Assembly: GCF_003018235.1 (NCBI RefSeq)
Contig: NZ_CP027437.1
Reading direction: 5' to 3' (one strand)
From: Escherichia coli
GTDB taxonomy: Bacteria; Pseudomonadota; Gammaproteobacteria; Enterobacterales; Enterobacteriaceae
DNA length: 64,000 bases
The notes under the pieces were generated by a model. It made no database searches and had not been told where the DNA came from. It saw nothing but the letters and a program-made list of their open reading frames with translations. Both the position numbers and the translations under genes were made by a program. Shown piece after piece: positions 36,047-41,287 of the stretch. Positions within the stretch are counted from its first letter, which is position 1. Every line of letters begins with the position of its first letter.

Positions 36047-39000
36047 ATGGCTTCAACAAATGCGCATCAAATAAAAAATAATGATCAAAACTCTTTATGT
36101 GGTCTGGGTGACAAAATACGCCGCCTGACCGCCGGAGTTTGTTTATTTACACAAATTTTTTTCCCCGTCATGGCGACGGCACAAAATGTGGTACACGCTA
36201 AGCCTCAGACGACAGTTTCATCTCCGTCCCCTCTAATAGAAAATAATACTGTGCCTTACACGCTTGGTGCGCTGGAATCAGCGCAAAGCGTTGCTGATCG
36301 ATTCGGTATTTCACTGGAGGAGCTTCGTCGTCTTAATCAGTTCCGTACTTTTGCTCGCGGCTTTGATAACGTGCGCCAGGGTGAAGAACTGGATGTTCCG
36401 GCAACAACCTTGCAGAAAAGTCATGAGCAACAAAATGCCGTACCGCCTGCGAATGGCGAAAACACGCTGGAGAATCAAATAGCCAGCACTTCGCAGCGAG
36501 TTGGCACCCTGCTTTCACAAGATATGAATAGTGAGCAGGCCAGCGGCATGGCGCGTGGTTGGGCGTCTTCAGAAGCCTCAGGCGCGATGACTGATTGGTT
36601 AAATAACTTTGGCACTGCGAAAATCTCTCTGGGTGTGGATGAAGATTTCAGCCTGAAAAATTCGCAATTCGACTTCCTGCATCCGTGGTATGACACACCC
36701 GATTATCTGCTCTTCAGCCAGCATACCCTTCACCGAACAGACGATCGTACCCAGATCAACACCGGTTTGGGCTGGCGTCATTTCACCCCCAGCTGGATGT
36801 CAGGCATCAACCTGTTTTTTGACCACGACCTGAGCCGCTATCACTCCCGCGCGGGGCTTGGCGCAGAATACTGGCGTGATTATCTGAAGTTGAGCAGCAA
36901 CGCTTATATCGGCCTGACCGGCTGGCGTAGCGCACCGGAATTGGATAATGACTACGAAGCCCGCCCGGCCAACGGCTGGGATTTACGCGCGGAAGGCTGG
37001 TTACCAGCCTGGCCACAACTGGGTGGAAAACTGGTCTATGAACAATACTATGGTGATGAAGTGGCGCTGTTTGACAAGAATGATCGCCAAAGTAATCCCC
37101 ATGCTATTACCGCGGGCCTCAACTATACCCCCTTCCCGCTTCTGACTCTCAGTGCAGAACAGCGTCAGGGGAAGCAAGGTGAAAATGACACACGTTTTGC
37201 CGTTGATCTGACCTGGCAACCCAGCAGCTCAATGCAGAAACAGCTTAACCCGGACGAAGTGGCCGGACGGCGCAGTCTGGCCGGTAGTCGTTATGACCTG
37301 ATTGATCGCAACAACAACATCGTTCTGGAATATCGCAAGAAAGAGCTGATTCGCCTGAGTCTGATGGATCCGGTGAAAGGAAAGTCTGGAGAAATAAAAC
37401 CGCTGGTTTCCTCGATACAGACCAAATATGCCCTGAAAGGCTATAACATCGAAGCCGCTGCGCTGGAAGCTGCCGGAGGTAAAGTCAGCACGTCTGGAAA
37501 AGATATCACGGTCACGCTGCCAGGTTACCGCTTCACTAACACTCCAGAAACCGATAATACATGGTCGATAGACGTTACCGCCGAGGATGTAAAAGGTAAC
37601 CTGTCACGTCATGAACAAAGCATGGTCGTCATTCAGGCTCCGACATTAAGCCAGAAAGATTCTCTGTTATCCGTTAATCCGCTAACCGTAGCTGCAGATA
37701 AAAAATCGACGACCACATTGACCGTTACTGCGCACGATTCCGACGGAACTCCGGTGCCGGGGCTGGCGCTGCAAACCCGCAGTGAAGGCGTTCAGGATAT
37801 CACCCTGTCTGACTGGACAGATAACGGTGATGGTAGTTACACACAGATGCTGACCGCCGGAACGACATCAGGTTCAGTAACACTGACGCCGCAAATTAAC
37901 GGTGAGAGTGCGGTAAAAGAATCCATTGTCGTTAATATCGTCCCTGTTGTCTCATCCCGCGACCATTCATCAATAACAATAGATAACGTATCGTATTATG
38001 CCGGAGACGACATCAAGGTTAGGGTGGAACTGAAAGACGACAGCAATCAACCGGTTGCTTATCAAAAAGAAGAATTGGTAAAAGCCGTTACTGTCGAAAA
38101 CAGCAAACCTGGAGCCACGATTGTCTGGAACGAAGAGCAGCCGGGCGTTTATGCCGCGAATTATCCGGCCCATAAGCAAGGGACAGCACTAAGGGCACAA
38201 CTTAGCCTTCACAACTGGAATGCTCCACTGCAATCACATATTTATAACATTGAGGCAAACCAGAATAAGGCTCGCGTCGCCACATTATCAGCGACGAATA
38301 ATGACGTTTACGCCGATAAAATGACATTTAATACCCTCACTATCAACGTCACTGATGAGAGTGATAATCCCCTGACAAATCATCAGGTCACCTTTAAGAA
38401 TGAAAAAGGAAGCGCTGAATTTGTCGAACCGCCGCAGCAAAATACGGATGCATACGGTGTTGCTACAATCAATATGGTAAGTCAGGTTGCGGAAGAAAAT
38501 ACGATTAGTGCCACGCTGCCAAATGGTTTCTCACAACGGATAATTGCGAAATTCGTTAGCGATTCGAGTACGCCAAAATTCAAACAACTGGTTGCCGATC
38601 CAGATACCATTATTGCTGGCAACAGCCAGGGCAGTACTCTGACCGCCACCGTCACAGACTTTCATAACAACCCGTTAAAAGATATGAAAGTGAATTTTGT
38701 GGCGCCTGGTGGCTCGCAACTGGACAACACGACCGCCACAACAGACCAGTTCGGTATTGTGCGAGTGCACCTGACCAGTTCAAAAGCTGGTAGCTATTCC
38801 GTCGATGCCTCGCTTGAGGCGGATAAAAATATTCACCAGTCGGTCACGATCACCGTGGTCCCAAACAGGGAACAATCGGTAATGACCTTAAATGCCGGGT
38901 CAGGCAGTGCGATCGCTAACAATACAAATACCGTTATCCTGACAGCCAGTGTGAAAGATGTGTATGGACACCCGTTGCCGGATGAGGATGTGAAATTTAC

Positions 39001-41287: not shown

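Follow-up and report, generated by a model that had tools for sequence, protein, structure and literature searches.

The 64,000-nucleotide stretch of Escherichia coli DNA analyzed here (the window, from contig NZ_CP027437.1) contains a single uninterrupted open reading frame (ORF) at 36047..41287 on the plus strand, which begins with ATG and comprises 1746 codons plus a stop, as established by six-frame ORF listing and translation. This ORF was identified with high confidence as an intact allele of iatD, a chromosomal accessory gene for a type Ve adhesin of the intimin/invasin family. The encoded protein is identical to IatD of strain SMS-3-5 (EcSMS35_4876, ACB20062.1) at 1716 of 1746 residues (98.3%), gap-free. 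It is this 98% gap-free identity, together with equal length and the same neighboring genes, that makes the ORF an intact allele of an already named gene. The gene, its architecture and a biofilm assay have been published before, and the locus is ordinary accessory content.

Identity of the gene

The name iatD was introduced for EcSMS35_4876, a 5,241-bp gene from the environmental strain SMS-3-5, and its orthologues were reported to share more than 98% amino acid identity (Goh et al. 2019, mSphere, PMC6714894). The gene in the window has the same size, 5241 bp, as that listed in Table 1 of the same study, and the boundaries assigned by the Prokaryotic Genome Annotation Pipeline (PGAP) are identical in strains MEI003 and SMS-3-5, again spanning 5241 bp. 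The name given to the orthologues by PGAP is "iatD: inverse autotransporter IatD". NCBIfam holds no IatD-specific model, and its best match, IatC_Nterm, falls under the cut-off of that model; the PGAP name must therefore stem from another type of rule. The identification of the coding sequence thus draws on the ORF listing, the SMS-3-5 alignment and the PGAP name of the orthologue.

The chromosomal slot yjiJ–iatD–kptA is common to the window, SMS-3-5, MEI003 and O157:H7. In SMS-3-5, iatD occupies the same yjiJ–kptA locus with the same 5241-bp length and with the same pentapeptide-repeat, yjiK-like and yjiJ neighbors. The differences from SMS-3-5 amount to 30 amino acid substitutions in IatD and to the pentapeptide-repeat neighbor, annotated there as 1974 bp versus 2115 bp here.

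No evidence contradicting the identity of iatD was found. A preliminary description, made from the sequence alone, had placed a 1746-residue ORF at exactly these coordinates. The largest ORF on the opposite strand within iatD encodes 86 residues, and no overlapping ORF approaches iatD in size. A chance origin of the reading frame, or its creation by misassembly of repeated immunoglobulin (Ig)-like modules, has a negligible probability. Nothing beyond the general risk of misassembly in repeat arrays speaks for it, whereas the Ig-like units are merely 14–42% identical in pairwise comparison and so cannot collapse or expand in assembly; by the same measure they are not recent tandem duplicates. 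No array was detected within iatD by Tandem Repeats Finder, and the same 5241-bp length recurs in independent complete genomes. The ratio of nonsynonymous to synonymous substitution rates (dN/dS) between alleles was 0.12–0.19 in every region, including the tip (0.12–0.16), and the coding sequence is therefore under purifying selection. For annotation, the gene is to be labeled iatD, intact allele, and the window sequence provides a second intact iatD allele for experiments.

Domain architecture and relation to known adhesins

The N-terminus of IatD (aa 1–45, 36047..36181, plus strand) has, in translation, the pattern of a long signal region: basic residues K23, R25 and R26, a hydrophobic stretch from L27 to M42, and A43-T44-A45 followed by Q46. 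The YeeJ N-terminus can be aligned with both the hydrophobic core and the A-x-A motif, and signal-peptide cleavage would be expected after A-T-A. A LysM-like periplasmic domain follows at aa 71–118 (36257..36400, plus strand). Its Pfam score was weak (E = 0.06), the match to the solved LysM protein 4uz2 reached E = 7e-4, and over this stretch IatD hardly differs from the LysM of YeeJ, which has been tested by experiment.

The inverse-autotransporter β-barrel occupies aa 148–423 (36488..37315, plus strand; Pfam PF11924 IAT_beta, E = 7.7e-109). In comparison with solved structures it matched the invasin barrel 4e1t at E = 1e-81 and the intimin barrel 4e1s at E = 2.5e-67. As in other type Ve proteins, or inverse autotransporters, the PF11924 barrel lies N-terminal to the passenger.

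The passenger begins with a module at aa ~440–535 (37364..37651, plus strand), which is comparable to intimin D00 by the NCBIfam intimin_all and YeeJ alignments. It has no Pfam match; the intimin_all model covers aa 152–530 (intimin positions 173–549), and the module falls within the region 74% identical to YeeJ. From these alignments an Ig-like fold is predicted for it. Ten Ig-like units of the Big_1/Invasin_D3 type follow at aa 540–1539 (37664..40663, plus strand). Nine of them were clear in Pfam, while the tenth, a weak unit, emerged when a hidden Markov model (HMM) built from those nine was rerun on the protein; the weak unit is unit 2 (aa 643–723). With the Ig-like module of the tip, IatD would contain about twelve Ig-like modules and a lectin-like cap.

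The tip module (aa 1541–1746, 40667..41284, plus strand) consists of an invasin-D4-like Ig domain and a C-type-lectin-like cap, as assigned from Pfam, phmmer, AlphaFold and Foldseek. Pfam recognized Invasin_D4 alone (aa 1564–1624, E = 1e-5), and the lectin-like C-terminus was invisible to it, with no Intimin_C match. A phmmer comparison of the tip with invasin 1cwv gave E = 4.8e-6. An exhaustive HMMER search yielded 275 tip homologues at E ≤ 0.001, of which 43 were aligned for structure modeling. The resulting AlphaFold model (AF2) of aa 1541–1746 had a predicted local distance difference test (pLDDT) score of 96.7 and a predicted template modeling (pTM) score of 0.90. When this model was compared with the PDB by Foldseek, invasin D4–D5 (1cwv) was matched at E = 1.5e-12 with a template modeling (TM) score of 0.82 and a root-mean-square deviation of 2.5 Å over 200 columns. 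Intimin D2–D3 (1f00) reached TM 0.67, and C-type lectin-like domains (snake-venom proteins, LOX-1, langerin) were matched with a probability of 1.0. The modeled tip thus appears closer to invasin than to intimin, fitting invasin D5 better than intimin D3.

Beyond the signal region, C1660 and C1742 are the sole cysteines of IatD. Both are invariant or nearly so among the 43 aligned homologues, and C1660 corresponds in the alignment to the leading cysteine of the disulfide in invasin D5. The two residues probably form a disulfide bond. Asn1664 of IatD stands at the alignment position of invasin Asp911, a residue needed for integrin binding. Because of this replacement, the sequence neither predicts nor excludes integrin binding by IatD.

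The domain plan put forward in the preliminary description, comprising a signal region, a LysM motif, a barrel, Ig-like repeats and a cysteine-containing lectin-like C-terminus, agrees with the present analysis: the barrel and Big_1 units were found directly by domain search, the lectin-like tip was recognized by its modeled fold, and the signal region and LysM motif are probable from their likeness to YeeJ. Its count of about eleven Ig-like repeats was essentially right, given ten Big_1-type units and two further Ig-like modules.

Nucleotide differences from SMS-3-5 were densest at nt 4000–4500 (aa 1334–1500). The cluster raised the question of positive selection at the tip, which was rejected, since dN/dS there is about 0.2. 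A word-indexed protein search with the C-terminal 300 residues found no more than two short fragments and was of no help in assessing distribution; it was replaced by the exhaustive search of representatives. A scan of C-terminal IatD peptides against about 100,000 species-representative genomes, which requires exact 8-residue matches, found no close relative. The need for exact matches limits the weight of this negative result, as does the lack of iatD in all E. coli-labeled representatives recovered in a second scan.

Four known systems were compared with IatD. YeeJ of K-12 is 74% identical over aa 30–700, that is, the signal region, LysM, barrel and first Ig modules, and yeeJ shows about 77% DNA identity over nt 199–1990. 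YeeJ also shares the overall plan of LysM, barrel, Big_1 array and lectin-like cap, and it confers biofilm formation on overexpression (PMC5595812). However, yeeJ lies at another chromosomal locus and has no DNA similarity detectable by megablast past about nt 2000 (aa 665); its product carries 13 Big_1 domains and a cap recognized as Pfam Intimin_C (PF07979), a domain that Pfam did not detect on IatD. IatC (NCBIfam NF040978) gave the best NCBIfam match, with 1123 bits over aa 12–838, and belongs to the same architecture class according to Goh et al. (PMC6714894). This score is well under the curated cut-off of 2400 for Ve_IatC_Nterm, and IatC proteins are 2459–2965 aa long and encoded at a different locus (PMC6714894). 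IatD therefore combines an anchoring module common to YeeJ and IatC with, judged by these alignments, its own distinct passenger.

Yersinia pseudotuberculosis invasin (1cwv, 4e1t) aligns with the passenger at aa 1256–1713 over domains D1–D5 (E = 1.7e-23), and the likeness extends to the barrel, the tip fold and the conserved cysteine pair of the tip. In contrast, invasin has four Ig domains versus about twelve in IatD, the identity at the tip is 24%, and Asp911 is unconserved. Intimin of enteropathogenic and enterohemorrhagic E. coli (1f00, 4e1s) shows the same succession of LysM, barrel, Ig domains and lectin-like cap and resembles IatD in both barrel and tip. Nevertheless, IatD scored 359.8 bits against a cut-off of 1400 for the NCBIfam intimin_all model, iatD lies outside the locus of enterocyte effacement with no adjacent gene for a Tir partner, and the IatD passenger is much longer.

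Distribution, proposed function and expression

Distribution was determined by megablast of the yjiJ–ORF–kptA segment in 5426 complete E. coli genomes, of which 635 contained the entire yjiJ–iatD–kptA segment and 638 (11.8%) contained iatD when the gene was taken alone, in line with the preliminary assignment of the gene to strain-specific accessory content; it is not universal. In O157:H7, iatD is annotated as "frameshifted" (strain PA20, locus L065, 5501..10742). Compared with the window allele, the O157:H7 gene is longer by a single base at nt 177, next to eight consecutive C, and the resulting frameshift leads to a stop at codon 67. An exact match to the O157-type 60-mer was found in 285 genomes. 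In one pigeon isolate, iatD carries an IS3 insertion. Genomes without the O157-type frameshift number at most about 350 (~6.5%), a figure for which disruptions elsewhere in iatD were not screened; it fits the 6% of genomes reported to carry a complete iatD (Goh et al. 2019, PMC6714894). Phase variation through the homopolymer tract of eight C is conceivable in principle. As a marker, the locus places the source strain in the minority of E. coli with an adhesin block between yjiJ and kptA, and in the smaller subset without the O157:H7-type frameshift. In PA20, kptA is likewise annotated as frameshifted.

The mechanism proposed for IatD is based on type Ve secretion as described for intimin, invasin and YeeJ (PMC4943183, PMC5595812), and the secretion steps, the disulfide, the rod geometry and the native role are all extrapolated from these relatives. 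The long signal peptide would direct export via Sec. The LysM domain would stay in the periplasm and anchor IatD to peptidoglycan; in YeeJ, deletion of LysM abolishes peptidoglycan binding in pull-down assays (PMC5595812). The barrel (aa 148–423) would insert into the outer membrane, after which the C-terminal passenger may be exported through it by way of a hairpin, with the Ig modules folding sequentially outside the cell. The approximately twelve Ig-like modules would then form a rod whose tip presents the invasin-D4/D5-like unit of Ig and C-type-lectin-like domains.

When the SMS-3-5 protein was expressed in K-12 from a plasmid, immunofluorescence demonstrated its surface localization (Goh et al. 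2019, PMC6714894). Its overexpression in K-12 led to strong biofilm formation in both microtiter/static and flow-cell assays (PMC6714894). The adhesion or biofilm assay suggested in the preliminary description has thus already been published for the 98%-identical orthologue, with a positive result for biofilm on overexpression (PMC6714894).

Several observations count against the overall reading of the ORF, although none contradicts the identity of the gene. At the level of architecture, neither Pfam LysM nor Pfam Intimin_C reached significance on the protein. At the level of function, IatD conferred neither autoaggregation nor binding to extracellular-matrix proteins (PMC6714894), and the biofilm phenotype arises solely under overexpression driven by isopropyl β-D-thiogalactopyranoside (PMC6714894). 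No convincing promoter was found upstream of iatD in a consensus scan compared with shuffled sequence. Finally, iatD is a frameshifted pseudogene in O157:H7 and therefore dispensable in at least that lineage.

The expression signals around the gene were examined in the presumed promoter region, the 210-bp yjiJ–iatD intergenic region (35837..36046), which has a GC content of 34%, and downstream of the stop codon. A GGAAGG motif lies 5 nt upstream of the iatD ATG. A promoter-like match at 35851..35880 was no better than those in shuffled sequence, and consensus promoter and terminator scans over 35600..41600 returned sites no more frequent than in shuffled sequence. A hairpin with a perfect 12-bp stem is located 16 nt past the iatD stop codon (41303..41330, plus strand; RNA fold z = -3.6 for 41285..41410). 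With the short U tract that accompanies it, this hairpin is a possible terminator, although it was not among the sites reported by the consensus terminator scan. A single repetitive extragenic palindromic (REP) element, noted just downstream of the gene in the preliminary description, was located at 41356..41383 (plus strand) with one mismatch to the REP consensus. Two REP copies were observed in the window versus none expected by chance. The second copy (24718..24745, minus strand) lies downstream of a 470-aa ORF, the counterpart of MEI003 yjiR, at 23118..24530. Rfam reported nothing near iatD, its sole match in the window being symR at 7617..7693.

Two other accounts of the role of iatD were weighed against these data. 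According to one, which is possible but doubtful, the gene is cryptic in the source strain: silenced, for instance through an effect of H-NS on the AT-rich sequence upstream, mostly idle, and decaying as in O157:H7. The 34% GC upstream region with no promoter match above chance, the O157-type frameshift allele in at least 285 of the 638 carrier genomes and the IS3 insertion within iatD of one strain are consistent with this account, as is the report that many E. coli autotransporter adhesins are unexpressed under standard laboratory conditions (Goh et al., PMC6714894). However, the 5.2-kb reading frame is intact here, the dN/dS of 0.12–0.19 between intact alleles points to continuing selection on the protein, and silencing in the laboratory does not equal lack of function.

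According to the other account, which is unlikely, IatD is chiefly an adhesin or invasin specific for a host receptor, with the tip binding, for example, an integrin or a glycan, and with biofilm formation as a side effect of overexpression. The same possibility was raised by Goh et al. (PMC6714894). The best match of the tip model is the integrin-binding D4–D5 superdomain of Yersinia invasin, the disulfide cysteines are conserved, and the tip is under purifying selection. Against these points stand the tip identity to invasin of just 24%, the alignment of Asn1664 with Asp911, the invasin residue needed for integrin binding, and the absence of binding to extracellular-matrix proteins in the published assays. 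The identification of the ORF as an intact allele of a type Ve adhesin gene is the reading retained here.

The 10.4-kb divergent block and other window features

The preliminary description had regarded the adhesin gene as inserted between yjiJ and kptA. The position was correct, while the notion of a clean insertion did not hold, as iatD forms part of a 10.4-kb divergent haplotype block (31002..41440), delimited by blastn and sliding identity against NEBExpress and MEI003. The block stands in place of 2.2 kb of K-12, with yjiK and yjiJ alleles about 80% identical to their K-12 counterparts. It contains an espX6-like gene (31367..33481), a yjiK-like gene (33712..34590), yjiJ (34658..35836; a 392-aa transporter of the major facilitator superfamily, upstream of iatD), iatD itself and the tail of kptA. 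The gene order of the block is the same in SMS-3-5, MEI003 and O157:H7. In K-12 MG1655, yjiJ and kptA are convergent and only 12 bp apart with no gene, and thus no iatD, between them, which agrees with the adjacency given in the preliminary description; the B-strain derivative NEBExpress is alike.

Relative to NEBExpress, the left flank up to 31001 was 95–99% identical, the insertion at 31002..33753 had no match, yjiK and yjiJ (33754..35814) were 77–86% identical, the iatD segment (35815..41440) again had no match, and identity rose to 98–100% from 41441 onward, within kptA. Alignment of the junction with K-12 placed the right breakpoint exactly at the K-12 kptA stop codon. As a consequence, KptA is 10 residues longer here (194 aa versus 184 aa in K-12), the extra codons lying at 41408..41440. 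The kptA gene, downstream of iatD, spans 41408..41992 on the minus strand (NCBIfam RNA 2'-phosphotransferase, E = 7e-129). A 184-aa kptA adjoining yjiJ is also present in Escherichia sp. E1V33.

The yjiJ allele of the block diverges from the K-12 type by 18% at the DNA level, compared with about 5% for E. whittamii and Escherichia sp. E1V33, and it falls outside the group that K-12-type E. coli and these two make up. It follows that the block is either older than the split of these Escherichia species or an import from a lineage that has not been sampled. A third, intermediate yjiJ allele was seen in strain E69 (locus L012).

The espX6-like gene (31367..33481, plus strand) encodes a 704-aa pentapeptide-repeat protein, has a GC content of 35% and is missing from K-12 and B strains. 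Its annotated length varies by strain (1974, 2115, 2118 and 2196 bp). A 24-bp tandem repeat of 8.2 copies (33179..33375) within the gene encodes about nine 8-residue units of the NDSTEKQA type, and variation in repeat copy number would fit these length differences. This repeat may be the O157 typing locus Z5935. The O157:H7 orthologue is named "T3SS effector pentapeptide repeat protein EspX6" by PGAP, T3SS denoting the type III secretion system, and EspX6 corresponds to ECs5295 (PMC5931665). The espX6-like gene was found in 639 of the 5426 genomes and iatD in 638; the two genome lists were not intersected. These near-equal counts suggest that the two genes belong to one haplotype. Both were present, in the same order, in all four carrier genomes inspected.

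The block edges bore no mark of a mobile island, be it a tRNA, an integrase or direct repeats, in the sequences examined, in which junction repeats were not searched exhaustively, and an origin as a classic integrative island is thus unsupported. That the block represents an ancient or introgressed haplotype maintained as one piece, in which adhesin and putative effector could cooperate in colonization, is a speculative and rather improbable proposal. The mildly new points are the sharp block structure, the deep divergence of yjiK and yjiJ, and the linkage to the EspX6-like gene; the deep divergence of the block surrounding iatD is a modest population-genetic curiosity.

In Citrobacter sp. Cu233 (locus L029, 8962..14248), a 1042-aa inverse autotransporter is encoded directly downstream of a yjiJ homologue. 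It is 45% identical to IatD over aa 38–737, and the arrangement may be a coincidence or an old linkage. As evidence for an ancestral yjiJ–adhesin linkage this locus was set aside, the yjiJ homologue being 61% identical and the adhesin 45% identical in its N-terminal part.

The left part of the window (738..10616) contains an "immigration control region" with the type I restriction genes hsdR, hsdM and hsdS as well as mcrB and mcrC; the symR antitoxin RNA (7617..7693) found by Rfam with 95.8 bits lies within it. Next, at 10673..17017 on the minus strand, comes an intact helicase-related ORF of 2114 aa, with matches of the DEAH-box and DpdJ-like kinds; its counterpart in MEI003 is broken by IS30. 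An IS21-family element, whose istA and istB genes lie at 18910..19932 and 19929..20711, respectively, appears to have divided a gene of the yjiT family into two ORFs on the minus strand (17105..18853 and 20762..21943).

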